Positions 8,405 to 37,752 are shown, counted from the stretch's first letter. The stretch is 64,000 bases of DNA from an uncultured Planctomycetota bacterium (GCA_963845755.1 CAWJTV010000019.1:1-64000), one strand, 5' to 3'. Notes: generated by a model from the letters alone, not told the origin. Translations and numbers: made by a program.

Positions 8405-8726
8405 GCGCCGCGGTCCGCGTCTATCTCGCCAAACAGCCGGCCGACATGCGCAAGAGCTTTGACGGCCTGGCCGCCCTGGCATCAGGCAGCCTGGCGCTAG
8501 ATCCCCTCTCCGGTCATCTCTTCGTCTTCGTCAACAAGCGCCGCGACCGCATCAAGATCCTGTACTGGGATCGCGATGGCCTGGCCGTCTGGGCCAAGAA
8601 GTACGAGTAAGACTGCCCCCATCCTCTCGACTTTACAGGAATCGTCGGACACCCCCATAATCGCGCTGGCCGGCCTGATGCGGCTGGCGGAATGGATCGA
8701 AGCTCAACACCCCGTGATCCAAGGAG

Positions 8727-8924
8727 GTGCCCCATGTCGCGAGACGCCGGACTCGTTGCTCCCCCCCGCGCACGTCGGTCGTTCGGCCGTCGGTGCTGGA
8801 CCAACTCTGGAGCCGACTGACGGACGAGCAGCGTCAACGAACGCTGCTCACCCTCAGCGACATCGTGACTCGACAACTCGGCGCGCCTCGCACCGCTCAG
8901 GAGGTGCGCGATGAAATCTCGTGA
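8727..8924 (+). CDS. small protein overlapping the recombinase start (possible accessory or directionality factor; start uncertain because of a C-run)
   Basis: ...LDQLWSRLTDEQRQRTLLTLSDIVTRQL...EVRDEIS*; GGAGG before ATG 8734; conserved in copy 2. Confidence 0.5.
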   Translation: MPHVARRRTRCSPPRTSVVRPSVLDQLWSRLTDEQRQRTLLTLSDIVTRQLGAPRTAQEVRDEIS

Positions 8925-11093: not shown

Positions 11094-11409
11094 CAAGAGA
11101 GGCCGCCGATTCGTGGCGGCAGTAGCCCAACGTCTCAGGATTTGTGTAACGCCACAAGAACGAGGGTCCTGTGATGCCAGCATCAAGAGGCTCGAACGCG
11201 GCACCTTCCGCATCCCGGACGCGGCGGCCGATCGCGTCGAGATGACCACCGCCGAACTCGCCGCCCTCCTGGCCGGCATCGATCTGGACAAGGCCCGACG
11301 GCGCGTCCGCTACTCGCGGCCCGCCACTCCCCTTCGAAATTCGGAGAATAATCTACCGACAGGAGCATAATGCGCCAACAATCGAGCACCCGTCAACGTA
11401 GTATAGGGT

Positions 11410-12985
11410 ATGATCACCCTCGCGGACCCACTCCCGGACGACCTGGAGGCGGCCCATCAGCTCATCCGTGAGCTGCTCAAGTCGCTCGCCCAGCAGGTCC
11501 ATCTCAACGAGAAGCTCCAGCACCAGCTCGAGCAGCTCCTCCGCCAGCGCTACGGTCCCAAAGGGGAGCGGATCGACCCGGCCCAGCTCTTGCTCTTCGC
11601 CCGGGAGATCCTGGAGCAGGCCGAGGCGGCGCCGACACCCGCCCCGACCCCGGAGCCGGCCCCGGCCCCGACGCCCGCTCCGAGTGCGGCCCAGAAGAAG
11701 GGCCACGGACGCAAGCCGTTGCCGGCGAGCCTGCCCCGAGTGCCGGTCTTGCACGACGTCCCGCCCGAACAACGCACTTGCCCCGACTGCGGCGCCGAGC
11801 GCACCTGCATCGGCCGGGAAGTCCGCGAGCAACTCGAATTCATCCCCGCCCGCCTGGTCATCCTCGAACCCATCCGCCCCAAGTACGCTTGCCAGGACTG
11901 CCAGGCCAACGTCGTGATCGCCGACGTGCTCCCCGAGCCGATCGACAAGGGCCTGCCAGGCCCGGGGCTGCTGGCTTACGTCGCCGTCAGCAAATATGCC
12001 GATCACTTGCCGCTCTATCGCCTCGAGGGAATCCTCGATCGCTCGGGCGTCGAGTTGTCGCGGTCAACGATGTGCGACTGGATGGCCACGATCGCCGATC
12101 TGCTCAAGCCGATCGTCGATCTGATGCTGAAGAAGATCCTCAGCTCCAGGGTCGTCCAGAACGACGACACGACGGTGCCGGTGCAGGACCACGACGGCAA
12201 GGGGATCAAGACCGGCCGGCTCTGGGTCTCCGTCGGCGACCGCGGCCATCCTTACGTGGTCTATCGCTACACGCCGGACCGCAGCGCCACCGGGCCCCGG
12301 GAGATCTTCAAGGACTTCCAGGGTTATCTCCAGGCCGACGCCTATTCGGCCTACGACGGCCTGTACAAGTCGGGCGAGATTATCGAGGTCGGCTGCATGA
12401 TGCACGCGCGACGGAAGTTCTACGAGGCGCGGACCGTCAACCCGCAACGGTCCCATCAGGCGCTGGCATGGATCAGCCTGCTCTACGACGTCGAACGCGA
12501 CGCCAAGAAGCGCGCAGACCGCGGACTACGAGGCCTTCGTCGCGTTCCGGCACGAACTGCGAAACGAGCGATCGCGTTCGATCTTCGACAAGTTTCACGC
12601 CTGGCTGGAAGCCGAGCAGCCCAAGGTTCTGCCCAAGAGTCCGATCGGCGAAGCGATCCAGTATGCCTTGAACCATTGGGAGGCCCTGAAGCGTCCGTTG
12701 GAGGCCGGGTTCCTCGAACTGGACAACGGTGCGTGCGCGGGCGCGTTCAAGCCCGTGGCGCTGGGACGGAAGAACTGGTTATTCGCGGGGAGCGACCAGG
12801 GAGGCCAGACGGCGGCCGTGTTGATGAGCTTGTGCACGACCTGCAAGAATCTGGGGATCGACCCCCAGGCTTACCTCCGCGATGGGCTCGATCGGATCAG
12901 CACGCACCCGGCGAAGCGGATCGACGAACTGCTGCCGGACCGCTGGCAGGAGTTGCACCAGGCCGGCGCCGACGGGACTGAGTGA
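11410..12985 (+). CDS. tnpC: IS66 transposase TnpC (frameshift near 12517)
   Basis: CPDCG, KYADHLPLYR, DDTTV, LQADAY, CMMHARRKF, LGRKNWLF, IDELLP. Confidence 0.92.
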
Positions 12986-13239
12986 CCGCACCCGAGCCCC
13001 GCGCTCCTCGTCACCCCGGACGAGCGCGGGGCGATTGCGCGCGCCCCTCAAGGTTTGTCCCGCCCCAAGTTCGTCTCGGCCCGGCGCGAGCGCGGGATGA
13101 TCGCGTGCGCCGAGCACAGTGAAAGAATCAAGACGGTGCCCCGAACATCATCTCACGCCCGTGAACCGCTTTGAAGATGTGGTTCACCGGACGCACTCCT
13201 CACAAGAAGCATATCCTATCGCATGGCGGAGACGTCGGG

Positions 13240-22323: not shown

Positions 22324-22650
22324 GTGAAGATCAACACGCTGATACCTCCGGCATCGTTGGTGGGATTGGTCCCGCCCGAGCCGAAACCGGCCGGCAACCC
22401 GGTGATCGACATCGAGATCGAGGGATCCGCGATCCTCTTCCAGGCGACGTTGAACGGCAAGTCGGTCCGCCGGGCGTGCAAGGTGATCGCTGAGCATGGA
22501 CCGGACGGTGTCAACGCGGTACTCCAGGGCAACCTGAAGCCGCCGGCCGCGCCGGGCGGCCCGTTTGTGCTGGATGCGGCCGGACTGGCGGTCACGCCCA
22601 AGCCGCCAAAGTCGGATACCCAACCCCGGGCCGACGGAGCGACGCCATGA
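22324..22650 (+). CDS. hypothetical protein
   Basis: GTG start; the stop overlaps the next ATG (ATGA coupling). Confidence 0.55.
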   Translation: MKINTLIPPASLVGLVPPEPKPAGNPVIDIEIEGSAILFQATLNGKSVRRACKVIAEHGPDGVNAVLQGNLKPPAAPGGPFVLDAAGLAVTPKPPKSDTQPRADGATP

Positions 22651-22763
22651 CCGAAACTCAAGCCGAGAAGATCCTGAAGGAACTCCGGGGCATCAAGGTG
22701 TGCGTCATCATCCTGACCGTCATCATCGCCTTCGCGTCCGCAAAGGCGACGTTCAACCTCTGA
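22647..22763 (+). CDS. 38-aa single-TM microprotein, copy 1
   Basis: MTETQAEKILKELRGIKVCVIILTVIIAFASAKATFNL*; a second copy lies at 26284. Confidence 0.7.
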   Translation: MTETQAEKILKELRGIKVCVIILTVIIAFASAKATFNL

Positions 22764-22776
22764 CCGGACCCGCACC

Positions 22777-23103
22777 ATGCGACTCCCTCGGATGACGACG
22801 CGACGGTGGATGGTCGCGGTGGCGGTTGTGGCGCTTCTGTGCCTGCTGGAACATCGACGCCGATCATTCGAGTCGCTTGCGGCCTATCACCAATCTAAGT
22901 TGGACCGCTTTCTCATTTGGCGATCGCTCGACGACCTCACGGTAATGCGTCTGTATCATCGAGACCTAAAACCCCTGACTACGGATGAGACGAAGGTCGC
23001 TACCTGGCACGCGGCGATGGCCCGGAAGTACGAGCGTGCCGCCTGTTATCCCTGGCTCCCCGTCGAGCCCGACCCGCAGGGGGGCGGAATGAAGAGGCGC
23101 TGA
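22777..23103 (+). CDS. MRLPRMTTRRW / ARKY-YPWLP family small protein, copy 1
   Basis: Both constant motifs present; 39 aa between the conserved His residues. Confidence 0.85.
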   Translation: MRLPRMTTRRWMVAVAVVALLCLLEHRRRSFESLAAYHQSKLDRFLIWRSLDDLTVMRLYHRDLKPLTTDETKVATWHAAMARKYERAACYPWLPVEPDPQGGGMKRR

Positions 23104-23122
23104 ACTCGAACGTGGGCCGACT

Positions 23123-23484
23123 ATGCGACTACCCCGAATGACAACCCGGCGGTGGATGGCCATGGTGGCGGTCGTGGCCGTTACGCTCGCCTCCTCCGTC
23201 CTTTTCCGGCGCCATCTGGGGCTCGCGAGCGGGGCGATTATCACGAGGGGATGGAGGAGATCCAGGCGGATCGGGCGCGGGGCCTCGAGGAGCGAGCCCT
23301 CACCGTTGCCGCTACGAACCCCGTGTTGGCCGCTCGCGTGCGGGTTCACGCGGGTCTTGCGGCCGAGATCCGCGACCAGCACGCACGCCTCAAGGAGAAA
23401 TACCGCAACGCCGCTAGGTACCCCTGGCTCCCCATCGCGCCCGACGAGTCGGATCTGGGATCGGCGACAGGGGGTTTGCGATAA
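23123..23484 (+). CDS. MRLPRMTTRRW family, copy 2 (frameshifted)
   Basis: N motif in ORF 23123; HARLKEKYRNAARYPWLPIAPD in ORF 23152. Confidence 0.75.
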
Positions 23485-23506
23485 TCCTCATGCCCGGAGG
23501 CTGGCC

Positions 23507-23787
23507 ATGCGAGGGACTCTCCCAAGGATGACGACCAGGCAGTGGATGAGAGTGGTCCTGTTGGTCGCGCTCTCGCGCTCAGTTGGTATCAGATTAGGCA
23601 GCGAGTTCGGTACCGCCAAGAGCGTGCTCAACACCACCAATTCCTGGCCGCCGTCTGCGCAGCGTCGGCGCGCTTCGATCCCGACCCCAGCCTCCCCAGA
23701 TGGGTCCAATACCACACGGAGATGGCCCGCAAGTACCGAGATGTCACCCACTTTTTCTGGCTCCCCGTCGAGGAGGAGCTGAAGTGA
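23507..23787 (+). CDS. MRLPRMTTRRW family, copy 3 (frameshifted, divergent)
   Basis: MRGTLPRMTTRQWM...; YHTEMARKYRDVTHFFWLPVE; GGAGG RBS. Confidence 0.75.
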
Positions 23788-23842
23788 GGCGGAGGCTCGA
23801 GGATCGTAACGCCGAATGCGTTACACACCACGGAGACCACAC

Positions 23843-23947
23843 ATGCGACTTGTCCCTCGGATGACGACGCGGCGGTGGATGGTTGTGGTTGCGGCGGTCG
23901 CATTCTGGCTCGCGGCGCAGATGATGGTATATCGGGCTGGCCAGTAG
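23843..23947 (+). CDS. MRLPRMTTRRW family, copy 4 (N-terminal module only)
   Basis: MRLVPRMTTRRWMVVVAAVAFWLAAQMMVYRAGQ*. Confidence 0.6.
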   Translation: MRLVPRMTTRRWMVVVAAVAFWLAAQMMVYRAGQ

Positions 23948-24309
23948 GTCGGAGGGTGGGGATCGAAGGAGTTCAACGCGATGGTCGCCGAAGTCAAGGC
24001 ATTGCTGACGGCGGAGCCTGAGCAGGGCAACACAGCCTGAACCGGGACGTTTGACTTACAACCCGGTCAACGTCTAGAGTCCGAACCATGCCTGAGGATA
24101 CCATCGAGCCTGACGACGGCGCGACTGTTGTGGCGTGGATTGGCGGACATCCTCGCGATCATCTGCGGCGAACACTTGGAACCTGCCTCATGAGGCAGGA
24201 GGCATCCAACGTCGGCCAAGCGAAAGGCGGATGTGGCATGAGCATTGCGGCTGTCGCGCAGCGGCTTGTCGAGGAGTATCTGAAGCGAAAGAGAGGCAGG
24301 ATGTAACCC

Positions 24310-24621
24310 ATGGCCAATGGCAAGAATGATTACATTGCCGGGATCGTTAATCATCCCGAAGTAAGTGACGCCGTGGCGATCGTGATTGAAAGGCGTGGGG
24401 AGAAGTATTGCGTGGGTGCCGACCAGGCGCGGAACCTGGCGGACCAATGGGAGGCTAATGGAGATGATCCCCCGGGTTTCATCCGCGACATTCGCTCAAG
24501 CGCGGACTGGTTGTCCGATTTCGTGAAAACCGTAAAAGAGGGGATACCGGGGACCTGCCGCGAGTTCAAAGCCGGCGAGCCGTGGGAAAGAGATGAAGGC
24601 CCCAAGGGACCGACAGCGTAG
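24310..24621 (+). CDS. hypothetical protein
   Basis: 103-aa ORF co-oriented in the array, with protein-like composition. Confidence 0.55.
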   Translation: MANGKNDYIAGIVNHPEVSDAVAIVIERRGEKYCVGADQARNLADQWEANGDDPPGFIRDIRSSADWLSDFVKTVKEGIPGTCREFKAGEPWERDEGPKGPTA

Positions 24622-24628
24622 GTGGAGC

Positions 24629-24868
24629 ATGATCCTCGACCTGGAGATCGGCGGCGGCCGGGATGACCTCCTGGCGTTGTTCGACGGGAGGCCAGGACTG
24701 ATGAAGGTCGTGGAGATCACGTTCGGCGATGACAGCAACTCCCGGATGCTGACGTTCGAGGGGGGCGACGCGTCGTGTCTTCAAATTCGCAAGAACGGCA
24801 AGTGGAAGTGCATCGTGCTTGTGGGGAACTTCCCGGATTCATTGGGAGAGATGGTGGGCTCGAGGTGA
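24629..24868 (+). CDS. 79-aa MILDLEIG protein, copy 1
   Basis: Paralog of 29218-29457; shares LLALFDG, MKVV, LTFEGGDA, GKWKCI, GNFP. Confidence 0.8.
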   Translation: MILDLEIGGGRDDLLALFDGRPGLMKVVEITFGDDSNSRMLTFEGGDASCLQIRKNGKWKCIVLVGNFPDSLGEMVGSR

Positions 24869-25341
24869 CCCGTCACCGGTTTTGAAGACCGGGCCATGTA
24901 CCAGGCGGACATCCCGCAGAAAGGTAGGCGGCACGTGACCGACCCAGCCATCGACGACCCACCCGACGGCCTACCGGAGGGGGCTACTCGATCCCGACTT
25001 GCAGGCCCTCCTGGACGCCGCACGGGACATCAAGAGGCTGGCAGAAGTGCTCGCCAGGACTCCCGGCGGTCTGACGCCGGAGTCTTGTCGCAGGATCCTG
25101 TCGGCCGTGGACACACTCGCGATGGAGATCGACAAGGTAGAGGGCGGTGAAGGATGAGACCGAATGGTTTGCTCGCGGGCCGTGTCGGGAGGGTGGCGGC
25201 CGGGGCGCGGATACAGGAAGTTTTTGACCCTATGCAGTAACGAGGGTCAATAGTGCCGGGAGGGTGGGATCAGTTCACGATTTGAGGGATATTCCAGGTG
25301 CCTGAGCAGCACCAATCAGGCACGCCGCCGAGGAGAAAGTC

Positions 25342-25848
25342 ATGTCGATTGCGATCTACGGACTGGCCGTCCAAACGATCGGCATCGGGATCGCGTTCCT
25401 CATCGGGGCCGTCGTTTGCCAGGAGTTGGGGCGCATCCTCCGGCGTCGTCCGATCCCCCAGAACTACTCCGCACTCTCGGGGTTGCTCTTCGTGACGGCC
25501 ATATGCGGAGCCGAAATCGGCGTAGTGTTTGTCATCTCTGCGATTGCCGCGCGTCAACTGGCACACGTTTGCAGCGGGCGCAAGCTTTCGCCCGAGGCTA
25601 CCCTTCTCGGCGGGCTGATTGGGCTGCTCCTGATCGGCTCTCTTGCCCTGTTCGTCTTCCCGTCCCATTCGCCTCTCACGGGTCCCCAGCTCGGTCAATG
25701 GAGGCGCTGGGATCGGGCTCGGCGTTCAGCCGGCCGAATCCGTAGATACGTTGTGCAAAGCCAGGTGATCCTGCAAATGGTCGGGCGGCCCGATGTGACA
25801 CGGCGAAAGAGTGTGTATGGGATACCCACCTCCGATGGCTGTGGGTGA
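25342..25848 (+). CDS. hypothetical membrane protein
   Basis: GAGGAG RBS; about three hydrophobic segments. Confidence 0.6.
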   Translation: MSIAIYGLAVQTIGIGIAFLIGAVVCQELGRILRRRPIPQNYSALSGLLFVTAICGAEIGVVFVISAIAARQLAHVCSGRKLSPEATLLGGLIGLLLIGSLALFVFPSHSPLTGPQLGQWRRWDRARRSAGRIRRYVVQSQVILQMVGRPDVTRRKSVYGIPTSDGCG

Positions 25849-25885
25849 CCCGAGGCCCCACCAACGAGACGACGGAGAGGGAGCC

Positions 25886-26203
25886 ATGCGATTGATTCCC
25901 CGGATGACGACGCGGCGCTGGATGGTCGCCGTGGCGATTGCGGGGCTGCTCTGCCTCCTGGAGTATCGGCGCCGGGAGTTCGCGGCGCTCGCGACCTATC
26001 ACGGGGCCAAGGCGACGGCCGGTGCGATCATCCGCCGGGGCAGCATGGGCATGAAGGTGACTTACGTCGATCCCGACGGGAACGTCATCACGATGGACGA
26101 CCTGGGTGTGGCTCGCTGGCACGAGACACTCGCCGCGAAGTATCGCCGTGCCGCTCGCTACCCGTGGTTGCCGGTTGACCCGGATCCACCGGGGCCGGAG
26201 TGA
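25886..26203 (+). CDS. MRLPRMTTRRW family, copy 5
   Basis: MRLIPRMTTRRWM...WHETLAAKYRRAARYPWLPVDPDPPGPE*. Confidence 0.85.
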   Translation: MRLIPRMTTRRWMVAVAIAGLLCLLEYRRREFAALATYHGAKATAGAIIRRGSMGMKVTYVDPDGNVITMDDLGVARWHETLAAKYRRAARYPWLPVDPDPPGPE

Positions 26204-26283
26204 ATCGGCGCGTGGACCAGGGCCATGGGGTGCGAGGATCTCAAGGACATCCTGCGACAATCGCGGAGGCAAGGACAAGATCC

Positions 26284-26400
26284 ATGACCGAAACCCAAGC
26301 CGAGAAGATCCTGAAGGAACTTCGGGGCATCAAGGTGTGCGTCATCATCCTGACCTTCATCATCGCCTTCGCGTCCGCCAAGGCGACGTTCAACCTCTGA
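26284..26400 (+). CDS. 38-aa single-TM microprotein, copy 2
   Basis: MTETQAEKILKELRGIKVCVIILTFIIAFASAKATFNL*; one residue differs from copy 1. Confidence 0.7.
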   Translation: MTETQAEKILKELRGIKVCVIILTFIIAFASAKATFNL

Positions 26401-26413
26401 TGGGACCCACGCC

Positions 26414-26914
26414 ATGCCGTTACCCCTGATGACGACGCGGCGGTGGATGGTCGTGATGGCGATCGCAGCTTTAGGGGCATGGAGGGTCGATCATGAGAGA
26501 TTCGCTGCGCTGTTCTGGGGGGCTCCATTGCTGGGGTCATTTCTCGGGATCGTGATAGCCGACGGAAGGCGGCGCAGGTTACTCGGCAGCGCCCTAGGTG
26601 CTGCGATCACAAGTGCGTGCGTGTTCTTCACCAACCTCTTCGTCTATCAAAAATATACCTTTGTGACGATGGTTCAAGCGCCGAAGGAGCCGTTCACTGA
26701 GGCGATGGCGGGGGCGGTCCTTGGCTCGTTCGTGGGCATCGCCGCCTTGCTAGACTATCGGCGATCGTTGTCCTGGCTGTGGGGGGCGCCGGCCCTGATC
26801 CGGACCGAGTTGTTCAAGAAGCGGCACGGGACGGGGAAGAATCTCGGATCGAACACGCCGCCCGCGATCCCTGGCTTCTCGTCGAGCCCGACCCGCCGGA
26901 GCTATAGTGAATAA
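26414..26914 (+). CDS. MRLPRMTTRRW family N-module fused to an unrelated multi-TM body (copy 6)
   Basis: MPLPLMTTRRWMVVMAIAAL, then several TM segments; no ARKY/PWLP tail. Confidence 0.7.
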   Translation: MPLPLMTTRRWMVVMAIAALGAWRVDHERFAALFWGAPLLGSFLGIVIADGRRRRLLGSALGAAITSACVFFTNLFVYQKYTFVTMVQAPKEPFTEAMAGAVLGSFVGIAALLDYRRSLSWLWGAPALIRTELFKKRHGTGKNLGSNTPPAIPGFSSSPTRRSYSE

Positions 26915-26954
26915 AAGTCCAGGACCATGAATAAAAATTCAGGGGCCAATAATA

Positions 26955-27200
26955 GTGCAAAGCCATGTGAGCACGATTCGGGTCTGGGTGAACTCAGGTC
27001 GATTCCCCGAACCTCATTCGATCATCGGGTGCACGTGGTTCTACGATGCTGCCGTCATCGAGCATTACTTCAAGGCGGGTCGCTGGCCGGCTGTCGCTCA
27101 CTTCCGCACTCTGCCACCGAGGCCGGATCAAGTCCGATCGGCGGACGATGAACCCCTCGCGGCAGCGAACCCGACCTGTTGTGAGAGTCGAAAGAAGTAA
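26955..27200 (+). CDS. AlpA/excisionase-like HTH protein (start uncertain)
   Basis: HVSTIRVWVNSGRFPEPHSIIGCTWFY resembles the AlpA-type winged HTH signature. Confidence 0.45.
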   Translation: MQSHVSTIRVWVNSGRFPEPHSIIGCTWFYDAAVIEHYFKAGRWPAVAHFRTLPPRPDQVRSADDEPLAAANPTCCESRKK

Positions 27201-27496
27201 CCCATCGTTGACGCGGACAGGCGCGCGGGACGATGCCGGGGACGTGTGGCGGATGATCCAGGTGGCGGCCGCCGCGCTCCTTCTCACGTCACAACTGAAG
27301 TGGCGGTGGTGGCTGCTCGCCAAGGCGCCCGATTAGAACAGGTCACCTCTTCCCGGGCGACCCGGCGGGCGGCCAGCATGATGGCCACCGCGGCCAAGCT
27401 GTCGGTCGCAGAGACGGCGCTGGCTGCTGTTTGATGCTGATCGCCGCGCGTCGGTCGTTGCCGCGAGCAGCGGCTCCAACACAGGAGGCTCCCTGG

Positions 27497-28096
27497 ATGA
27501 AGTGGCTTCGTCTTTCCATCGCGAGCCTGATGGCGTTCGTCGTCTACGCGGCCATCGGGTTCGCCGCCTTCAGCAAGGTTAACGACCGGTATTACGGCAG
27601 GTTGTTGGACGACACCTATTACATGGTCACGGTCTTTCTCCTGGGCATCGCCACCATCATGGCGATCCTGAGTCCGGATCGCAGCCGGGCGCGGTGGCTG
27701 GGATTCGCCGTGTTCGGCTGGGTGCATCTGCTGTTCGGCTGGCCCGATTCGGGGGGCTCGCCGCAGGCCACCGGCACCTATCGGCCGAGGTTTCCCCACA
27801 CCACGTACATCAACTGGGTGCTCTTCTCGTATAATGCGCCGGAGTCGTCGCATCTCCACGAGGCCATCGGGGATTTCCTCCGGTCCCTGCTGTCGCCCCC
27901 GACGAATCCGCAGTGGGAGACTAACGTCTGGCATAACTTCCAAACGACCATGACGATGGCGACGGCACTCCTCGGGGCGGCCATCGGCAACCTCCTGGCC
28001 ATCTGGGTCGAACGCAACGCGTCAGCCGCCCGTGATTCGGGCGAGGCGAGTCGCCCGAGCCCGACGCACGGGACCGGTCGATCCGGACGGGACTGA
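27497..28096 (+). CDS. hypothetical membrane protein with RLSIASLM N-terminal motif
   Basis: AGGAGG RBS; MKWLRLSIASLMAFVV..., RARWLGFAVFGW; about four TM segments. Confidence 0.75.
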   Translation: MKWLRLSIASLMAFVVYAAIGFAAFSKVNDRYYGRLLDDTYYMVTVFLLGIATIMAILSPDRSRARWLGFAVFGWVHLLFGWPDSGGSPQATGTYRPRFPHTTYINWVLFSYNAPESSHLHEAIGDFLRSLLSPPTNPQWETNVWHNFQTTMTMATALLGAAIGNLLAIWVERNASAARDSGEASRPSPTHGTGRSGRD

Positions 28097-28125
28097 TTTT
28101 CTCGCACGGCGGACTGGCGGCGACC

Positions 28126-28540
28126 ATGCGACTACCCCGGATGTCAACGCGGCGGTGGATGGTCGTGGTCGCGATCACCGGAATCGTCTTGGGCGTGGCC
28201 GTCGGTGGCATCCGACTCAAACGACGGCGAGGCGAGTTCCTGGCACGCGCCCAGTTTCACGCCAAGATCGGGGCTCTGTACAGGCTGAAGGAGGCCAACG
28301 CCAGAGCTTTCTTCGAGGAACAAACCGTACTCATCGGCGAGTTGGAGAAGGAGCCACACGGTGGCCGGTTTGGCCAATCGCTCCTTAAGAGGGCAAGGAC
28401 GCGGCGAGGATCAGATGCGAAAAAGCACAGCGAACCTACCTCGCAAGATCGGATACCACGCGGCGATGGCCCGGAAGTACGAGCATGCCGCCGGCTATCC
28501 CTGGCTCCCGGTCGAGCCGGATCCGCCAGAGCCGGAGTGA
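28126..28540 (+). CDS. MRLPRMTTRRW family, copy 7 (frameshifted)
   Basis: MRLPRMSTRRWM...; YHAAMARKYEHAAGYPWLPVEPDPPEPE* in a shifted frame. Confidence 0.8.
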
Positions 28541-28570
28541 AGAGGCGCTGAACTCGAACGTGGGCCGACT

Positions 28571-28846
28571 ATGCGATTTCCCCGAATGACAACCCGGCGG
28601 TGGATGGCCATGGTGGCGGTCGTGGGCATCTTGCTCGGAGTCACGATTGAGCGGCGGAACCGCTTCAGGAAGATCGCGGACTATCATCAGGCCGAGTTAA
28701 TGAAGCTTGCCCGCCGGATGAAGCCGTTTGCAGACGATCGCTCCTGGCGTCCTCTTGAATGGCACGAATCGATGGCCCGCAAGTACGAGCGTGCCGCCCG
28801 TTTCCCATGGCTCCCCGCGGAGCCCGACCCACTCGAGCCGGAGTGA
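28571..28846 (+). CDS. MRLPRMTTRRW family, copy 8
   Basis: MRFPRMTTRRWM...WHESMARKYERAARFPWLPAEPDPLEPE*. Confidence 0.85.
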   Translation: MRFPRMTTRRWMAMVAVVGILLGVTIERRNRFRKIADYHQAELMKLARRMKPFADDRSWRPLEWHESMARKYERAARFPWLPAEPDPLEPE

Positions 28847-28872
28847 TCGCGACGAACCGACGGAGGATAGTC

Positions 28873-29148
28873 ATGCGACTGATTCCCCGGATGACGACCA
28901 GGCGCTGGATGATCGTGATTCTGACCGTATCCCTGCTGCTCGGGGCAATCGTGATGTGGCGGCGGGCGGCCTATTTCATGAGGCTGGCCGCCCTCCACGA
29001 GATGTTGGCCAATGACCTGCGTATCAAGGCAGACCCCATGGGGGACGTGAGGGCCGCGGAGCACAACGAAAGACTCGCGCGAATGTACCAACGGGCGGCG
29101 GTCCGGCCGTGGTTGAGCGTCGAGCCGGACGAGTCGGAGCCGGAATGA
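28873..29148 (+). CDS. MRLPRMTTRRW family, copy 9
   Basis: GGAGG RBS; MRLIPRMTTRRWM...HNERLARMYQRAAVRPWLSVEPDESEPE*. Confidence 0.85.
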   Translation: MRLIPRMTTRRWMIVILTVSLLLGAIVMWRRAAYFMRLAALHEMLANDLRIKADPMGDVRAAEHNERLARMYQRAAVRPWLSVEPDESEPE

Positions 29149-29217
29149 ATGATCGGGGCACCGTGACCCGCGTGGCATCGAGGGCGATCAAAGGACAACC
29201 GAAAGCGAGAGGTCGAC

Positions 29218-29457
29218 ATGATCCTGGACTTGGAGATCGGCAACGGCCGGGACGAACTCCTCGCCCTGTTCGACGGAATGCCCCGCTTCATGAAGGTCGT
29301 GGACATCAACTTTGCAGAGGACAGCGAGGGACGGACCCTGACCTTCGAGGGCGGCGACGCAGCGTGTCTTCAGGTTCGGGAGGGCGGCAAGTGGAAGTGC
29401 ATCGCGCTGGCGGGGAACTTCCCGAACTCTCTGGTGGAGATGGCGGGCTCGAAGTGA
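29218..29457 (+). CDS. 79-aa MILDLEIG protein, copy 2
   Basis: Paralog of 24629-24868, same length. Confidence 0.8.
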   Translation: MILDLEIGNGRDELLALFDGMPRFMKVVDINFAEDSEGRTLTFEGGDAACLQVREGGKWKCIALAGNFPNSLVEMAGSK

Positions 29458-29504
29458 CCAGGCCGGCGGCGCGCGAGGGATCCGTAGGTCGGGGGACGTC
29501 GGCC

Positions 29505-29883
29505 ATGCGACTACCTCGGATGACGACGCGGCGGTGGATGGTCGCAGTAGCGGTCGTCGGGCTGGCGATGAGTGGCATTATGGGTGGCGTCCGGCTTAAG
29601 CGACGACGTGACTCCTTCTTGGGTCGCCTCCGGTATCACGCCTTGATAGAGCGCATGTGCGTAGAAGAGAAAGACCACGTCGCGCCAAACTCTCGAGCTG
29701 ATGGAGAAAGTGTTGGATCCGAGCAACGTGCACGAGCGGACAATAATCGAAAAAGAGCGACGATGGGCGGCGCTGGCTACTCGTCGAATGGCGTACCACA
29801 CCGCGATGGTCCGCAAGTACCAGCGTGCCGCTCGTTACCCCTGGCTCCCGGTCGAGCCGGATCCGGCGGAGCCGGATTGGTGA
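29505..29883 (+). CDS. MRLPRMTTRRW family, copy 10 (frameshifted)
   Basis: MRLPRMTTRRWMVAVAVVGL...; YHTAMVRKYQRAARYPWLPVEPDPAEPDW*. Confidence 0.8.
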
Positions 29884-31435: not shown

Positions 31436-31688
31436 GAGTGCGTCCGGTGAACCACATCTTCAAAGCGGTTCACGGGCGTGAGATGATGTTCGGGGCACCG
31501 TCTTGATTCTTTCACTGTGCTCGGCGCACGCGATCATCCCGCTCGCGCCGGGCCGAGACGAACTTGGGGCGGGACAAACCTTGAGGGCGCGCGCAATCGC
31601 CCCGCGCTCGTCCGGGGTGACGAGGAGCGCGGGGCTCGGGTGCGGTCACTCAGTCCCGTCGGCGCCGGCCTGGTGCAACTCCTGCCAG
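31436..31688. repeat. tandem duplication of the IS66 right terminus (~253 bp)
   Basis: GAGTGCGTCCGGTGAACCACATC... starts at both 31436 and 31689. Confidence 0.85.
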
Positions 31689-31900
31689 GAGTGCGTCCGG
31701 TGAACCACATCTTCAAAGCGGTTCACGGGCGTGAGATGATGTTCGGGGCACCGTCTTGATTCTTTCACTGTGCTCGGCGCACGCGATCATCCCGCGCTCG
31801 CGCCGGGCCGAGACGAACTTGGGGCGGGACAAACCTTGAGGGGCGGGCGCAATCGCCCCCGCTCGTCCGGGGTGACGAGGAGCGCGGGGCTCGGGTGCGG

Positions 31901-33474
31901 TCACTCAGTCCCGTCGGCGCCGGCCTGGTGCAACTCCTGCCAGCGGTCCGGCAGCAGTTCGTCGATCCGCTTCGCCGGGTGCGTGCTGATCCGATCGAGC
32001 CCATCGCGGAGGTAAGCCTGGGGGTCGATCCCCAGATTCTTGCAGGTCGTGCACAAGCTCATCAACACGGCCGCCGTCTGGCCTCCCTGGTCGCTCCCCG
32101 CGAATAACCAGTTCTTCCGTCCCAGCGCCACGGGCTTGAACGCGCGCGCGCACGCACCGTTGTCCAGTTCGAGGAACCCGGCCTCCAACGGACGCTTCAG
32201 GGCCTCCCAATGGTTCAAGGCATACTGGATCGCTTCGCCGATCGGACTCTTGGGCAGAACCTTGGGCTGCTCGGCTTCCAGCCAGGCGTGAAACTTGTCG
32301 AAGATCGAACGCGATCGCTCGTTTCGCAGTTCGTGCCGGAACGCGACGAAGGCCTCGTAGTCCGCGGTCTCGCGCTTCTTGGCGTCGCGTTCGACGTCGT
32401 AGAGCAGGCTGATCCATGCCAGCGCCGATGGGACCGTTGCGGGTTGACGGTCCGCGCCTCGTAGAACTTCCGTCGCGCGTGCATCATGCAGCCGACCTCG
32501 ATAATCTCGCCCGACTTGTACAGGCCGTCGTAGGCCGAATAGGCGTCGGCCTGGAGATAACCCTGGAAGTCCTTGAAGATCTCCCGGGGCCCGGTGGCGC
32601 TGCGGTCCGGCGTGTAGCGATAGACCACGTAAGGATGGCCGCGGTCGCCGACGGAGACCCAGAGCCGGCCGGTCTTGATCCCCTTGCCGTCGTGGTCCTG
32701 CACCGGCACCGTCGTGTCGTCGTTCTGGACGACCCTGGAGCTGAGGATCTTCTTCAGCATCAGATCGACGATCGGCTTGAGCAGATCGGCGATCGTGGCC
32801 ATCCAGTCGCACATCGTTGACCGCGACAACTCGACGCCCGAGCGATCGAGGATTCCCTCGAGGCGATAGAGCGGCAAGTGATCGGCATATTTGCTGACGG
32901 CGACGTAAGCCAGCAGCCCCGGGCCTGGCAGGCCCTTGTCGATCGGCTCGGGGAGCACGTCGGCGATCACGACGTTGGCCTGGCAGTCCTGGCAAGCGTA
33001 CTTGGGGCGGATGGGTTCGAGGATGACCAGGCGGGCGGGGATGAATTCGAGTTGCTCGCGGACTTCCCGGCCGATGCAGGTGCGCTCGGCGCCGCAGTCG
33101 GGGCAAGTGCGTTGTTCGGGCGGGACGTCGTGCAAGACCGGCACTCGGGGCAGGCTCGCCGGCAACGGCTTGCGTCCGTGGCCCTTCTTCTGGGCCGCAC
33201 TCGGAGCGGGCGTCGGGGCCGGGGCCGGCTCCGGGGTCGGGGCGGGTGTCGGCGCCGCCTCGGCCTGCTCCAGGATCTCCCGGGCGAAGAGCAAGAGCTG
33301 GGCCGGGTCGATCCGCTCCCCTTTGGGACCGTAGCGCTGGCGGAGGAGCTGCTCGAGCTGGTGCTGGAGCTTCTCGTTGAGATGGACCTGCTGGGCGAGC
33401 GACTTGAGCAGCTCACGGATGAGCTGATGGGCCGCCTCCAGGTCGTCCGGGAGTGGGTCCGCGAGGGTGATCAT
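31901..33474 (-). CDS. tnpC: IS66 transposase TnpC, copy 2 (frameshift near 32425)
   Basis: Near-identical to 11410-12985. Confidence 0.92.
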
Positions 33475-33513
33475 ACCCTATACTACGTTGACGGGTGCTC
33501 GATTGTTGGCGCA

Positions 33514-36488
33514 TTATGCTCCTGTCGGTAGATTATTCTCCGAATTTCGAAGGGGAGTGGCGGGCCGCGAGTAGCGGACGCGCCGTCGGGCCTTGTCCAG
33601 ATCGATGCCGGCCAGGAGGGCGGCGAGTTCGGCGGTGGTCATCTCGACGCGATCGGCCGCCGCGTCCGGGATGCGGAAGGTGCCGCGTTCGAGCCTCTTG
33701 ATGCTGGCATCACAGGACCCTCGTTCTTGTGGCGTTACACAAATCCTGAGACGTTGGGCTACTGCCGCCACAAATCGGCGGCCTCTCTTGCTACCGGTCG
33801 GGACGGTCCTTGGGAACGACCAACTCAGGGTGCCGGGCGGCGATCCAGGAGTTCTTTCGTCTGGCCAGTTGTCGCAGGCGACGAACCTCGTCCTTGTCGG
33901 CCCACACGATCAGATGCTTTCCCGAAGGCGTACGCCGCGAATGGACCCAACCCTGCTTGATCCAATAATGGACCTTCTGGGCGATGACGCCGAGTTTCCC
34001 GGCCAAGTCGGGGATCCACCACTCGTCCTGGCCGACGAGGTCGTCGCGGAACAGTTCTCCGACCAGCCCAAGTTCACGGACCAACGCCCCGATCGTTCCC
34101 GCCGTGAACACGCCGCGACGGCGCGGCGGGACGAAGCCCTCGGCATTGAGCCGCGCGGCGATCTGCGACAGGTGAAGTCCTTCTCGATGGAGTTGCTTGA
34201 TTCGTTCCGTGAGGCGTCGAAAATCCTTCAATTGCTCATACCTGCCGACTGGCCTCGCGACCTGCTGTTGGGTTGTCATGCCGCCGAGCCAAACGATCGT
34301 TACCTCGTTGAGCTCAGTCGCCTTGTCGGCCACGACAATGACCCGCTCCACCGCGCAGCGCACGATCTGCTTGCGATCCATCGCCGACGTGCCTGGTGCG
34401 TGCCAGAGCGCGGCGACGCTCTCGGAGAGCGATCGAATCCGTTGGCGATCGGCGTCGTTCAGCGTCGCCGGCAGTCTCGTCAGGAACCGATGGTAATCCT
34501 CCTCCGTTTGACGCTGCTTCTTCAGCGCGTCCTCCCACCGCGCCTCGAGTGTCCGCGCCACGAGTCGGTTCTCGGGCTCCACGGCCTGATACTGCCGCTC
34601 GGCCCTCTCGACCTCCTGGCGTGCGCGTTCCAGAGTCTGACGCCAATGGTCGTGGAGCGCTTGCGCTCTCGCTCGGCGTTCTCGATCGCGCGTAGGCTCA
34701 GGTCCAGCGCAGCGGGCTCCAACGCGCGGAGCACTTCCTTCGCGACCAGGTCGTCCAGCGTCTTTGCCGAGATGCACCCGCACGGCTCGTCCAGGGCCAG
34801 CCGCCAATACTCGCCGCAGTGATAGCCGGGCTTCTTGTCGGCCTTGTATCGCGTCGTCATGTGGCGGCCGCATTTCCCACAGACGACCAGGCCGGGCAGC
34901 AAGGCCTCGCCGCGTTTGGGCACGCCCCGCGTGTCGTGGAGCGATCGATTCTGTTTGAGGCGTTCCTGATTCGCGAGATAGCGATCCCAGCTAATGTACG
35001 CTGGGAGCCGATCCGGCAGGAACACGGCCAACTCCTCGGGCGGCACGAACCACTTGCCGCCTTCGGCTCGACCCGTCGTGGGATTCTTCGTCCCCGCGCG
35101 ATGTAGGCCATAAGCGTATGCCCCCGCATAGATGGGGTGTCGCAAGATCGACAGGACTCGACTGGGAGAGGCTGGCTTCCACTCCAGCTCCCCAATGCGC
35201 CCACCGCGATGACGGCGAAATCCCAGTTGCAGGTTGTTCACGACCAGGTAACGGAAGACCGCGTAGGCGGAACCGAGTTCCTCGAACTTCTCGAACACCA
35301 ACTGAATCATTCCACGCGCCTGCTCGTCAGGCTCTTGAATGATCTCGCCCGTGGCCGTCTTGAGGTATCCCAGCGGAACGGCCAGGAACAGCTCGCCGCG
35401 CTCCGCTTTGTTCCGACTGCCTCGAAGCAAACGATTGTACATAGTAATCAATTCGTATTCGCTCATTGCGCTTTTCATGCCAAGGAGGAGACGATCGTTA
35501 CTGTCCAAGGCATCGTAGACGCCATCTTGATCGCATAGCAGGGTGCGAAAGATGCCGCAGACGTCGATAAGACGATGCCATTCGGTATTCGACCGCGACA
35601 CCCTGCTAAGCTCCAACCCCAGCACGATCCCCACGTGGTTCAAGCTCACTTCCGTCATCAACCGCTGGAAGCCCGTGCGATGGTCGGTCAACTTGCCGCC
35701 GTGGCCCTGATCCTCGTCGATGATCACCACCCGCTCTGCGGGCCAACCGAGCCGTTGCGCGAACTGCGCCAGAGCATACTGCCGTTCGCGAGACTCGCGG
35801 TTCTCGAGGACTTGCTGCGGCGTTGACTGCCGCACGTACACGATCGCGAGTCGATCGAGATGCCGATCGCCAATCTTCGAGCTCGACCTCTGGCCGAAGG
35901 TGGAGGTCGATGGAGTCTCGTCGATTGATCTGTCCGTGCGATTGACGGCCCGTGCATCACGAGATTTCATCGCGCACCTCCTGAGCGGTGCGAGGCGCGC
36001 CGAGTTGTCGAGTCACGATGTCGCTGAGGGTGAGCAGCGTTCGTTGACGCTGCTCGTCCGTCAGTCGGCTCCAGAGTTGGTCCAGCACCGACGGCCGAAC
36101 GACCGACGTGCGCGGGGGGAGCAACGAGTCCGGCGTCTCGCGACATGGGGCACCTCCTTGGATCACGGGGTGTTGAGCTTCGATCCATTCCGCCAGCCGC
36201 ATCAGGCCGGCCAGCGCGATTATGGGGGTGTCCGACGATTCCTGTAAAGTCGAGAGGATGGGGGCAGTCTTACTCGTACTTCTTGGCCCAGACGGCCAGG
36301 CCATCGCGATCCCAGTACAGGATCTTGATGCGGTCGCGGCGCTTGTTGACGAAGACGAAGAGATGACCGGAGAGGGGATCTAGCGCCAGGCTGCCTGATG
36401 CCAGGGCGGCCAGGCCGTCAAAGCTCTTGCGCATGTCGGCCGGCTGTTTGGCGAGATAGACGCGGACCGCGGCGCTCAGTCCGAACAT
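33514..36488 (-). pseudogene. tnpB: IS66 TnpB copy 2, split by the recombinase element
   Basis: Same junctions as copy 1 (TCTTG at 33696-33700 and 36281-36285). Confidence 0.9.
33791..35970 (-). CDS. Large serine recombinase, copy 2
   Basis: Near-identical to 8911-11093; 1-bp indel near 34660. Confidence 0.9.
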
Positions 36489-36841
36489 GGGCGTCCCTCC
36501 ACGACCGCGATGAGATGGCGGAGGGTCAGGGGGTCGAATCCGGGGGCGACGGCGATCCGACGTCCGTTGGAGAGGATGAGTTCGAGGTGGGGTCCCGAGG
36601 CGGCGCTCGGCGGGATGGGATCGGGAAGGATAGTGACCGGGAGGAAATGGCGGTCGGCACTGGCGAAAGGACGATCGTCGCTGGGAGTGCGATCGGCCGG
36701 GGCGGGCTGGTAGAGATGCTTTCGGAAGGAGTGAAGCGAGATTTGGCGAAGGCGGCAGAACTCGGCTTGAGTCAGACCGCTCCTGCGGAAATCGTTGAGG
36801 AGGGCATTCCATCGTAGATCGATGGTTCGGCTTCGAGACAC
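36476..36841 (-). CDS. tnpA: IS66 TnpA, copy 2
   Basis: Same translation as 8039-8404. Confidence 0.85.
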   Translation of the reverse strand: MSRSRTIDLRWNALLNDFRRSGLTQAEFCRLRQISLHSFRKHLYQPAPADRTPSDDRPFASADRHFLPVTILPDPIPPSAASGPHLELILSNGRRIAVAPGFDPLTLRHLIAVVEGRPCSD

Positions 36842-37752
36842 GGCGTGATCTCCCTGACGGGACCACTGGCCCCGACAGCACTATCATCGCGGGGAGTCAC
36901 GCCGCTTTGTAGATGCACTTCACCGGACGGACACCGAACAAGTTGAGGACGGGATGAGTCATTGGGAGAAGTTTCTTCATGCCCCCATGCCAGATGTGCT
37001 CGTTCAACTCGCCATCGTCCATGCAGAGTTCGAATCACTTCACCCATTCTTGGATGGAAATGGTCGCATTGGCAGAATCGTCATTCCTTTGTTTCTATAT
37101 GCAAGAAACCAATTGCATGCGCCTATGTTTTACCCGAGCGAGCACCTAGAAGCCAATCGACAGGAATATTGCGACCGCTTGCTAGCCGTGTCACGGGACG
37201 ACGATTGGACTGGCTGGTGCTGTTTCTTCCTCGACGCCCTGATCCAACAAGCACGCCAAAACGCAAACAAGACCCGCAAGATCTTGGACCTCTATGAGTC
37301 GCGAAAAGACCAGATTCCCTCCGTCACGCGCTCACCCCATGCCATCAAGGCTCTGGATTTTATCTTTAAGACTCCGGTCTTCAACGCGAAGACATTTGTC
37401 AATGAGTCGCGTATACCGGCTCCCACGGCTCGCCGAATTCTCAACGTGTTGGCCGATAGAAAGTTGCTAAGAACGATCCGCCAGGCTAGCGGCGCCGTCC
37501 CGCAATCTACGCGTTCTCTGAACTGCTGAATATTACCGAGGGGAGGACGATCATTTGATGCTCGATTTTGGGAGGCCAAAACGCTTTGACGCTCATAAAG
37601 TCCCAAAAGTGAGCGTCAATAAAACTTGCCGCGCATGACTGAGCGTCAACAGAGACCAGCAGGGTGCTACATCAGCGCACTAGGCTTGCCGGGTTCCCTT
37701 GTTTTTATCCATCCTGCGTTCTTTGACATCCCGCACGCATCGCACGGGCGGT

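Follow-up and report, generated by a model that had tools for sequence, protein, structure and literature searches.

An array of ten co-oriented planctomycete genes from a large, as yet unnamed, family of small membrane-anchored helical hairpins

The ten co-oriented genes located between positions 22777 and 29883 of the 64-kb window (the whole stretch of DNA that was analysed) belong to an unnamed protein family of very large size, whose members are small, membrane-anchored helical hairpins; the family appears to be confined to Isosphaeraceae among the genomes searched. The array is probably best explained as a set of old paralogues of this family, lying in an IS-bounded island, with hairpins possibly held by Tat-type anchors and tips that are specific to each subfamily.

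A sequence-only reading of this DNA had described ten units with a constant N-terminal module, a variable middle and a constant C-terminal module, and we recovered co-oriented N-modules at all ten of the starts that it named. Across the 64-kb window, a degenerate nucleotide pattern that encodes M-(T/S)-T-R-x-W-M matches at exactly 10 sites, each of them on the plus strand, against a mean of 0.00 over 100 shuffles, and a repeat search returned the same ten N-modules as one 59-nt repeat family. The C-module had been assigned to eight units; the P-W-L-x-x-x-P-D pattern does have 8 matches in the window (0.13 expected), and the count becomes nine of the ten units once the degenerate C-module of copy 3 is added. 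As had been read earlier, copies 1, 5, 8 and 9 are the only units with a single open frame in the present assembly, whereas the frames of the N- and C-modules differ in copies 2, 3, 6, 7 and 10. The features of the array and its surroundings are as follows.

7946..13207, no strand: left inverted-repeat arm, 5.26 kb, with an IS66-family transposase and a large serine recombinase
15720-15995: SUKH-1 (SMI1/KNR4) fragment, in the same IS-rich island as the array
19716-20360: DUF932 (E 6e-5)
21344-21655: weak ribbon-helix-helix ORF
22647..22763, + strand: small hydrophobic ORF of 38 aa, read from the sequence, immediately 5′ of copy 1
22777..23103, + strand: copy 1, intact, 108 aa, 'LLCLLEHRRRSF' subfamily, with an atypical tail end (..PDPQGGGMKRR)
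23123..23484, + strand: copy 2, N- and C-modules out of frame, shift zone about 23190-23240
23507..23787, + strand: copy 3, N- and C-modules out of frame, shift about 23560-23585, degenerate tail FFWLPVEEELK
23843..23947, + strand: copy 4, N-module only, in-frame TAG at 23945-23947 after 34 aa
25886..26203, + strand: copy 5, intact, 105 aa, 'LLCLLEHRRRSF' subfamily as copy 1, middle predicted to form a beta-hairpin
26284..26400, + strand: second copy of the 38-aa small ORF, at the end of ORF 26200-26400 and 5′ of copy 6
26414..26907, + strand: copy 6, three extra hydrophobic segments between the modules, frame shift at the G6 run 26781-26786
26955-27200: weak excisionase-like ORF (phrog_66, E 0.0046)
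28126..28540, + strand: copy 7, frameshifted in the window, intact at 137 aa without base 28403
28571..28846, + strand: copy 8, intact, 91 aa
28873..29148, + strand: copy 9, intact, 91 aa, with a diverged C-module (..RPWLSVEPDESEPE)
29505..29883, + strand: copy 10, N- and C-modules out of frame, shift about 29665-29700
31680..36934, no strand: right inverted-repeat arm; 7 single-base indels and 6 substitution sites distinguish it from the left arm

No family match was found for the 38-aa small ORF. The 180-nt tract that holds this ORF and the start of copy 1 (22645-22824) is 91% identical to the tract at 26282-26461, and an 87%-identical counterpart is present in a sister genome (G020:C2). Copy 4 retains a weak tail-like remnant 3′ of its stop codon in the same frame. 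With module boundaries set by us, the middles are 38 aa long in copies 1 and 5, 24 aa in copy 8 and 21 aa in copy 9; the middle of copy 7 is 64 aa when base 28403 is omitted, and that of copy 6 is about 100 aa and includes its three additional hydrophobic segments. Since the middles of the array members do not align with one another, the constant-variable-constant description is correct.

The family could not be assigned a name from the databases, as the sequence-only reading had anticipated. Searches with the four intact copies and copy 6 gave a best Pfam E-value of 0.17, with all values far short of the cut-off, and no match in NCBIfam, PADLOC or PHROGs; 90 of 91 aligned members had no Pfam match at E<=0.01, the one isolated match being Tim54. 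The best E-value in a PDB sequence search was 0.079, and a Foldseek structure search returned 0 matches at E<=1e-3. A search for members of the family found 2,375 matches at E<=1e-3 among 3,968 candidates, and the names among the matches listed are all 'hypothetical protein' save for two MAG-derived labels. Among representatives of 50%-identity clusters 3,921 match, 840 of them at E<=1e-10. Judged by their record titles, 77 matching loci belong to Isosphaeraceae, Isosphaerales, Planctomycetaceae, Planctomycetales or Planctomycetota MAGs, Singulisphaera and Tundrisphaera. A search of related genomes matched the family in 53 of 60 others that belong, by record titles, to Isosphaeraceae (54 of 61 when the source genome is included), whereas none of 150 further Planctomycetota genomes matched, the single phylum-wide match among 151 being the source genome, G000, itself. 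The 61 Isosphaeraceae genomes have 0 to 48 matches each, and this number follows genome size (Spearman rho 0.81, n=61, the genomes being kin and not independent). Nor is the array peculiar to its island: the source genome has about 24 family loci, and thousands of members occur elsewhere. In 101 genomic contexts, analysed with naive ORFs and BLAST clustering, the three commonest neighbour clusters, present in 13, 9 and 8 contexts, resemble the N-terminal region of a kinase, an ECF sigma factor and a membrane protein with LRRs. Other parts of the source genome contain family fragments, among them C-module-only pieces on C20 and C11 and a C-module that stands behind an inserted gene on C40, and a paralogue of copy 8 with 85% nucleotide identity lies on C48.

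AlphaFold2 confidently predicts an N-terminal hydrophobic helix that runs into a two-helix hairpin and is followed by a proline-rich acidic tail, in support of the membrane-anchored helical hairpin proposed earlier. The model of copy 8 has a pLDDT of 93.1 with helices at residues 8-49 and 56-77, and that of copy 5 a pLDDT of 89.7 with helices at 9-42 and 70-91 and strands at 46-52 and 55-61. Family members are about 90-140 aa long and are built from six consecutive elements: a near-invariant Arg-rich N-terminus, MRLPRMTTRRWM; a short hydrophobic helix rich in V, A, L and G; a basic juxtamembrane stretch, RRxxFxxLAxYH, predicted to extend into helix 1 of the antiparallel hairpin; a tip that differs by subfamily, being a short loop, a beta-hairpin or a longer coiled coil, and in one subfamily carrying three more predicted transmembrane segments; helix 2, YHxxLAxKYxxAA; and a conserved proline-rich acidic tail, PWLPVxPDPPxP.

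The membrane anchor has Tat-like properties. Across 192 members, the uncharged segment has a median length of 16 aa, a mean Kyte-Doolittle hydrophobicity of 2.47 and a composition of 24% V, 18% A, 16% L and 11% G, and it has basic residues on both flanks (net charge +3.8 on the N-side and +2.2 in the 15 aa after the segment). The h-region of these members is Tat-like, with moderate hydrophobicity followed by basic residues, and a Tat-like n-region motif was found in 163 of the 192 using a relaxed (S/T/V)RRx-hydrophobic pattern of our own. The source genome encodes TatC (G000:C5:552744-553628, 194 bits), as do 57 of the 61 Isosphaeraceae genomes; because TatC is near-universal in this group, including in genomes without a family match, its presence does not discriminate. 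In the copy-6 subfamily, which has four hydrophobic segments, the positive-inside rule puts the C-module on the side of the N-terminus, the reverse of what a simple N-in/C-out topology would imply for members with one segment.

For each intact copy, separate orthologues were found in other genomes, with middles that can be aligned and keep their length. Copy 1 has eight full-length orthologues with 74-97% identity and the orthologues of copy 8 are 63-79% identical; in both cases the middles are gap-free, with identities of 55-97% and 50-92%, respectively. For the N-module, middle and C-module, the pooled dN is 0.131, 0.145 and 0.104 and the pooled dN/dS 0.27, 0.39 and 0.39, values that come from three short, close, gap-free pairs only. 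The pair of copy 1 and L001 has a dN/dS of 0.58 in the middle versus 0.04 in the N-module. At deeper divergence, identity in the middle falls to 29-52% for copy 9 versus about 70% in the ends, and to 14-25% for copy 7 versus 51-86%; here the middles evolve faster than the ends, and the tip is thus clearly less constrained. A middle motif of the Y-x-D-x-x-G-x-x-M-T type is common to 16 of 243 sampled members. The array members derive from at least five old subfamilies. Since each subfamily has its own orthologues elsewhere and the middles are under purifying selection, the variability represents an inherited repertoire and not on-the-spot diversification.

The way in which the paralogues came together is suggested by their 5′ ends. 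Copies 2 and 8 are identical at 17-20 of 20 nucleotides from -40 to +60 nt of the start, with identity at the random level thereafter, and the tract shared by copies 1 and 6 reaches the same 17-20 of 20; both tracts break off sharply 40-60 nt after the gene start. The similarity matrices of the two modules disagree, with copy 1 being nearest to copy 5 in the N-module (82%) and nearest to copy 7 in the C-module (87%). The array may thus have been built by duplication and recombination with breakpoints inside the conserved N-module. It lies within an IS-bounded island, and the mobile-element setting that had been proposed is supported by the finding that the array is in an 18.5-kb segment flanked by two 5.26-kb inverted repeats, which carry the IS66-type transposase and the large serine recombinase. 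DUF932, the weak excisionase-like ORF and an IS-disrupted Fic gene in the vicinity support the same setting.

The sequence-only reading had gone further and seen a candidate diversification system with a hypervariable tip or, as another option, a family of leader-core-follower precursors. An active system that makes hypervariable tips on a constant scaffold would account for the constant-variable-constant layout, the sharp breakpoints within the N-module and the incongruent N and C similarities, but we consider it highly improbable, and the outcome that the sequence-only reading had itself named as a refutation has essentially been obtained: every intact copy has orthologues elsewhere with conserved middles of the same length, dN/dS in the middles is 0.39, the middle dN of close pairs is essentially the same as that of the ends, and the middles vary in length and fold class, which is not a product of templated mutagenesis. 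Moreover, no reverse transcriptase (RVT_1) is encoded in the 64-kb window, the nearest on the contig of the 42 RVT_1 matches in the genome being at 266089-266673, and a search for a template/variable repeat pair found repeats in the conserved end-modules only, the middles ranging from 21 to about 100 aa and being unalignable. Tandem genes whose products have conserved ends around a variable centre would also fit precursor peptides of the RiPP type. However, a recurrent modifying enzyme, protease or transporter was absent from the 101 contexts, none was found among the 38 window ORFs scanned, and the whole chain, supposed core included, is predicted with confidence to be one fold with a hydrophobic anchor, making this origin extremely improbable. 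An immunity or protective repertoire, in which membrane-tethered immunity or decoy proteins act against envelope-acting toxins or phages as in poly-immunity-type arrays on mobile islands, is rather unlikely. The tandem arrays with dispersed orphan copies, the less constrained tip, and the presence in the IS-rich island of the SUKH-1 fragment and an IS-disrupted Fic gene near the array are consistent with it, but Pfam immunity families and PADLOC models remain unmatched, no recurrent toxin-like neighbour was seen among the neighbour clusters of the 101 contexts (neighbours being only partly profile-scanned), and the middles of close pairs are under purifying selection.

With 6 of the 10 units not intact in the window, and with the family fragments on C20, C11 and C40, the array could also be viewed as a decaying one, in which most units are pseudogenes without a present function, left over from duplications within IS-littered DNA. 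Several frameshifts argue against this. One short-read contig, at a depth of 2, lacks base 28403 and leaves copy 7 intact, although it could be a strain variant, and an intact paralogue of copy 7 (G000:C40:41185-41595), 78% identical in nucleotides, aligns across the repaired site. The frame shift of copy 6 falls in a G6 run, and its orthologues P0291 and P0292 are intact at 167 aa. Of the five copies with frameshifts, copies 6 and 7 at least thus look like assembly indel errors. The 7 one-base indels in 5.26 kb of otherwise near-identical repeat-arm sequence indicate that the frameshifts of the window may be assembly noise, and several of those in the array probably are assembly indels. Since the intact copies and their orthologues also show dN/dS values of 0.27-0.39, a decaying array is very unlikely. 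Only slightly more credit is due to the array being cargo of an ICE or prophage, for example anchored proteins for entry or superinfection exclusion or for lysis, and hence a property of the island. DUF932, the weak excisionase-like and ribbon-helix-helix ORFs and the flanking IS66 and serine-recombinase repeats would fit this quite unlikely reading, but PHROGs gives no match for any member, about 23 further loci lie in varied contexts in the same genome, 54 of 61 related genomes have 1-48 matches, and no 10-gene array exists in the sister genome, where only a small related array occurs. Unlikely, too, is a scheme in which the conserved modules serve as recombination handles that shuffle tips between genes and create strain-specific binding sets within an Isosphaeraceae-specific inherited repertoire. 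In that case, homopolymer tracts such as the G-run of copy 6 might switch single members on and off, the binding sets would serve self/non-self recognition, phage-receptor decoys or immunity, and the MRLPRMTTRRWM leader and PWLPVxPDPPxP tail would be signals for a dedicated insertion or docking machinery.

Under the reading that we prefer, of old paralogues with subfamily-specific tips, a mechanism can be proposed more tentatively. The conserved base and tail would form a common docking surface for the membrane or a shared partner, and the tip would set the partner specificity of each subfamily. The N-module could act as an uncleaved Tat-type signal-anchor that fixes the hairpin at the cytoplasmic membrane. 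The members may thus be membrane-tethered adaptors, possibly Tat-inserted, with a subfamily-specific tip. We can only infer this adaptor or docking role, since neither a conserved neighbour nor a domain fusion, structural relative or the literature supplies a function. The distinct members of the family number in the thousands, with up to about 48 matches in a single genome, yet it has no name or Pfam model; its two terminal motifs are unusually invariant, and its host planctomycete family has very large genomes. It merits definition and a DUF-type entry, and offers a tractable handle on the targeting and organisation of small envelope proteins in Isosphaeraceae and on what expands with genome growth in this group. 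The array also teaches caution, in that a constant-variable-constant array can be merely a set of old paralogues and that frameshifts in long-read metagenomes are not to be taken as pseudogenes.

Collectively, the array family shares single traits with several known systems. The targets of diversity-generating retroelements also combine a constant scaffold with a variable segment; here no reverse transcriptase or template repeat is nearby, and the variable parts, unequal in length and fold, are conserved among orthologues. Poly-immunity loci and PE/PPE-type helical-hairpin families are multigene arrays with conserved ends and variable centres, and are similar in their tandem and dispersed paralogues, in conserved terminal modules at which recombination would take place and in centres under weaker constraint. 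Unlike these, the array family has no sequence or profile match to them and no recurrent toxin-like neighbour in the 101 contexts, and VIA-align comparison with PE/PPE and ESCRT-III hairpins gave a Z of about 6-7 only, the level of a generic helical hairpin. Phage i-spanins of the Rz type have an N-terminal membrane anchor and a two-helix periplasmic domain, and resemble the array family as small bitopic proteins with two long linker-joined helices and proline-rich parts. However, the array family has no PHROGs match and no holin, endolysin or o-spanin context (no lysis genes were found among the 38 window ORFs scanned), and its genes are chromosomal, present in many copies and confined to Isosphaeraceae among the genomes searched. 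Bacterial Rieske iron-sulfur subunits have at their N-terminus an uncleaved twin-arginine (Tat) signal-anchor, with which the array family shares the (S/T)-R-R-x-hydrophobic motif, the moderately hydrophobic, A/V/G-rich segment of ~16 aa and the basic residues behind it. Unlike Rieske subunits, the array family has no cofactor domain, its passenger being a helical hairpin of 60-110 aa only, its Tat export is putative, and it has dozens of paralogues per genome. It is also set apart from ordinary signal peptides, in which the residues before RR are far less conserved than in the array family.

Searched with a degenerate DNA pattern that covers the N-terminal motif's core, the 64-kb window gave exactly ten matches, always on the + strand, against a mean expectation of 0.00 from 100 shuffled sequences; this bears out the ten co-oriented genes that the sequence-only reading had placed there (copies 1-10, 22777..29883). 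The same ten sites of the N-module, the Arg-rich start and its hydrophobic helix, were clustered by a repeat search of the window as one 59-nt repeat family. For the C-module (the second helix and the PWLPV-type tail), a pattern search with the core P-W-L...P-D returned 8 matches versus 0.13 expected; since copy 3 has a degenerate version of this module as well, both modules are present in nine of the ten units. Copies 2, 3, 6, 7 and 10 have their N- and C-modules out of frame with each other, copy 4 carries an in-frame TAG after 34 residues, and four copies are intact:

22777-23103, + strand, copy 1, intact
25886-26203, + strand, copy 5, intact
28571-28846, + strand, copy 8, intact
28873-29148, + strand, copy 9, intact

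The architecture of the family was read from an alignment of 91 sequences. Members start with a near-invariant M-R-L-P-R-M-T-T-R-R-W-M, followed by the hydrophobic stretch, by R-R-x-x-F-x-x-L-A-x-Y-H and then by the variable part, here called the middle; the very C-terminal end reads (W/Y)-H-x-x-L-A-x-K-Y-x-x-A-A-x-x-P-W-L-P-V-x-P-D-P-P-x-P, with W invariant. An AlphaFold2 model of copy 8 built with this alignment (mean pLDDT 93.1) predicts two helices (8-49 and 56-77) joined by a turn, and a tail that is ordered but not helical. For copy 5, modelled with its own subfamily (pLDDT 89.7), a beta-hairpin (46-52, 55-61) is predicted in the middle, between both helices. Homodimer prediction for copy 8 gave a score of 0.16 (mark 0.42), which speaks neither for nor against binding. 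Structure searches were not informative: Foldseek against the PDB gave 0 matches at E<=1e-3, and the best Z in a wide VIA-align search was 7.1, all matches being generic helical hairpins (ESCRT-III, PE/PPE, BAR, coiled coils).

The array genes match no model in Pfam, NCBIfam, PADLOC or PHROGs, 90 of the 91 aligned members are without a Pfam match at E<=0.01, and no sequence-related solved structure was found. The ESM Atlas returned only unnamed Planctomycetota clusters, and a full-text literature search, at the level of abstracts, brought up no mention of this family or of its motifs. In a 90%-clustered collection, 2,375 of 3,968 candidates matched at E<=1e-3, and among the names listed nearly all read 'hypothetical protein'; representatives of 50%-identity clusters numbered 3,921, of which 840 were at E<=1e-10. 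With a 4-sequence alignment as query we fetched related loci from species-representative genomes, and all 77 are titled as Isosphaeraceae, Isosphaerales, Planctomycetaceae, Planctomycetales or Planctomycetota MAGs, or as Singulisphaera or Tundrisphaera strains. Profile searches found these proteins in 54 of 61 genomes from the taxonomic family to which the window belongs, its own genome counted (high-quality genomes, 22/26), and in 0 of 150 genomes drawn from 78 other families in the phylum. Matches per genome, which are not copy numbers, range from 0 to 48, with the highest count in this genome, and follow genome size (Spearman rho 0.81, n=61, the genomes being kin). The family loci of this genome number about 24, on 19 contigs, and the array is the largest of them. 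Taken together, these are undescribed, lineage-restricted and strongly expanded small anchored hairpin proteins, a family worth its own definition.

The sequence-only reading had proposed a diversification system displaying a hypervariable tip. It had found the middles largely unalignable, and between array members they indeed do not align. For each intact member, however, there are separate orthologues in other genomes or metagenomes, whose middles are equal in length and align gap-free.

Identity of orthologues to the window copy, per region
Copy 1: 8 orthologues; middle 55-97%, N-module 64-96%, C-module 56-100%
Copy 8: 8 orthologues; middle 50-92%, N-module 67-85%, C-module 68-82%
Copy 5: 3 orthologues; middle 34-79%, N-module 72-81%, C-module 75-93%
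Copy 9: 7 orthologues; middle 29-52%, N-module about 70%, C-module about 70%
Copy 7: 3 orthologues; middle 14-25%, N-module 51-64%, C-module 68-86%

In the more distant comparisons, those of copies 9 and 7, identity is well below that of the ends in the middle, indicating that it is less constrained, but inherited. A middle sub-motif of the type Y-x-D-x-x-G-x-x-M-T was found in 16 of 243 sampled members with a looser pattern; a stricter first pattern had matched 1 sequence. We also estimated dN/dS (Nei-Gojobori) from a small sample of three gap-free close pairs, namely copy 8 with its paralogue on contig C48, copy 7 with its paralogue on contig C40 and copy 1 with the related locus L001. The pair of copy 9 and its counterpart on contig C12 was left out of the pool because of a one-codon offset misalignment; the C12 copy is frameshifted too.

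Pooled substitution rates in the three pairs
N-module: dN 0.131, dN/dS 0.27
Middle: dN 0.145, dN/dS 0.39
C-module: dN 0.104, dN/dS 0.39

Within the copy 1 pair the dN/dS of the middle (0.58) is clearly looser than that of the N-module (0.04). The pooled dN of the middle is close to that of both ends. Middles that align and evolve at the rate of the ends, the outcome that would refute the sequence-only reading by its own account, are essentially what was found. No reverse transcriptase was found in the window, and apart from the end modules the only repeats in the array region are two further small ORFs that are duplicated. On the strength of the inherited, length-conserved middles, the pooled dN/dS and these two results, both an active diversification system and a diversity-generating retroelement (DGR) were rejected; the array does not represent a novel type of diversification machinery.

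The near-identical tracts shared by copies 2 and 8 and by copies 1 and 6 begin upstream of the gene and end abruptly 40-60 nt into the N-module, and the tract of copies 1 and 6 takes in a 38-aa upstream ORF. The similarity matrices of the two modules conflict, copy 1 being nearest to copy 5 in its N-module (82%) and to copy 7 in its C-module (87%). Dispersed paralogues of individual members lie elsewhere in the genome at 78-85% nucleotide identity, and the sister genome (G020) has only a small array, composed differently. This pattern fits an array that would have arisen by duplication and recombination at the conserved modules over evolutionary time.

The 38-aa ORF, amphipathic at its start and hydrophobic at its end, occurs twice (22647-22763 and 26284-26400), directly upstream of copies 1 and 6. 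The two occurrences are 91% alike over 180 nt, the start of the following gene included; the ORF has no family match, and a related tract occurs in the sister genome (G020:C2). Two further paralogous small ORFs lie within the array, at 24593-24868 (91 aa) and 29218-29457 (79 aa), with 79% nucleotide identity over 243 nt; neither matches anything in Pfam, NCBIfam, PADLOC or PHROGs, and the other 100 family contexts contain no relatives of them. On contig C40 of the window's genome (G000:C40:123845-125257) an orphan family C-module ends an open frame whose front part resembles a nuclease-type gene, and the family gene there seems to have been disrupted by an insertion.

Probably not every frameshift in the array is real. 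A search of sequencing runs for the stretch listed four DNA runs of a single soil study, which contain parts of it, and no RNA run. Short-read contigs from a soil metagenome cover 40% of the sampled words of the stretch (a share of 0.40 at best), and one of them, at depth 2, lacks base 28403. Without this base copy 7 becomes an intact 137-aa member that aligns end to end, repair site included, with the intact paralogue on contig C40. In copy 6 the frame shifts at a G6 run (26781-26786), where a single additional G would bring the frames together. The frame is unbroken in two orthologues found in other assemblies, P0291 and P0292 (167 aa), and a third orthologue, P0294, has the same shifted reading. 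The two arms of an inverted repeat provide a natural control for the window:

7946-13207, left inverted-repeat arm (5.26 kb), with a 121-aa ORF, a large serine recombinase and an IS66-family transposase
31680-36934, right inverted-repeat arm (5.26 kb), with a 121-aa ORF, a large serine recombinase and an IS66-family transposase

The arms are 7 single-base indels and 6 substitution sites apart. Taken as a gauge of the assembly's indel noise, this amounts to about one indel in every kb, a rate that suffices to explain five shifts in the array. After window position 24163, in overlapping ORFs without known function, a short-read contig has two bases (CT) more than the window, likely another assembly indel.

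The array lies inside the 18.5-kb segment between both arms (13208-31679), a structure that could be a composite or an invertible element. The earlier placing of the array in a mobile island is reasonable, but the family as such is not a feature of the island. Direct repeats about 253-255 nt long, 96-100% identical, stand in tandem at the inner edge of the right arm (31434-31950). A DUF932-type gene (19716-20493, - strand) is split into two overlapping ORFs in the assembly, possibly by another indel of this kind, and its neighbour is a 100-aa ORF (20572-20874) whose Cys/His pattern may resemble a SWIM zinc finger. A weak ribbon-helix-helix ORF is found near the array and a weak excisionase-like ORF inside it. 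Just downstream, a Fic-family gene (Fic_N, E 4e-20; 29942-30307, 30379-31188, 31240-31506) appears to be broken by an IS4/IS5-type transposase gene (DUF4096 + DDE_Tnp_1), with a Fic-like continuation beyond. The GC content dips to 0.53, versus about 0.62, at 14001-17085, a tract that contains a SUKH-1 (SMI1/KNR4) fragment (15720-15995) and the two ORFs of a split ISAZ013-type transposase (16059-17085). The genome as a whole has 42 RVT_1 matches over many contigs (window, 0), several in identical copies, which suggests a group II intron or retroelement expansion.

Neighbourhood clustering of 101 contexts revealed no conserved neighbour, the best clusters occurring in 13, 9 and 8 contexts, and a phmmer search of the interspersed array genes against the same 101 contexts gave no conserved partner; for the 221-aa membrane protein encoded upstream of copy 7, no more than 4 other contexts yielded relatives, all of them weak. 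The 38 matches to longer forms are mostly tandem read-throughs or upstream ORFs joined by gene callers and include one TPR fusion cluster (P0278/P0280) and no informative fusions. An apparent sigma-70 region-4 fusion, P0287, was set aside as probably a read-through, because its tail resembles a frameshifted C-module.

Across 192 members the median length of the uncharged segment is 16 residues, with V, A, L and G abundant in it; the net charge is +3.8 on its N-side and +2.2 in the next 15 residues, and an (S/T/V)-R-R-x-hydrophobic motif is present in 163 of them. We envisage a membrane-tethered hairpin in which the conserved base and tail may form a common docking surface and the tip would differ from subfamily to subfamily. 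The copy-6 subfamily counts against one simple topology for the whole family: its first segment has only 13 residues and is joined by three more hydrophobic segments, and its loop charges obey the positive-inside rule only with both ends cytoplasmic, which would place its C-module across the membrane from that of an N-in one-segment member. TatC is encoded in this genome and found in 57 of 61 related genomes, some of them without the family, so its presence does not discriminate. A V/A/L/G-rich segment, basic flanks and an RR motif typically mark twin-arginine signals, as well as Tat signal-anchors that stay uncleaved.
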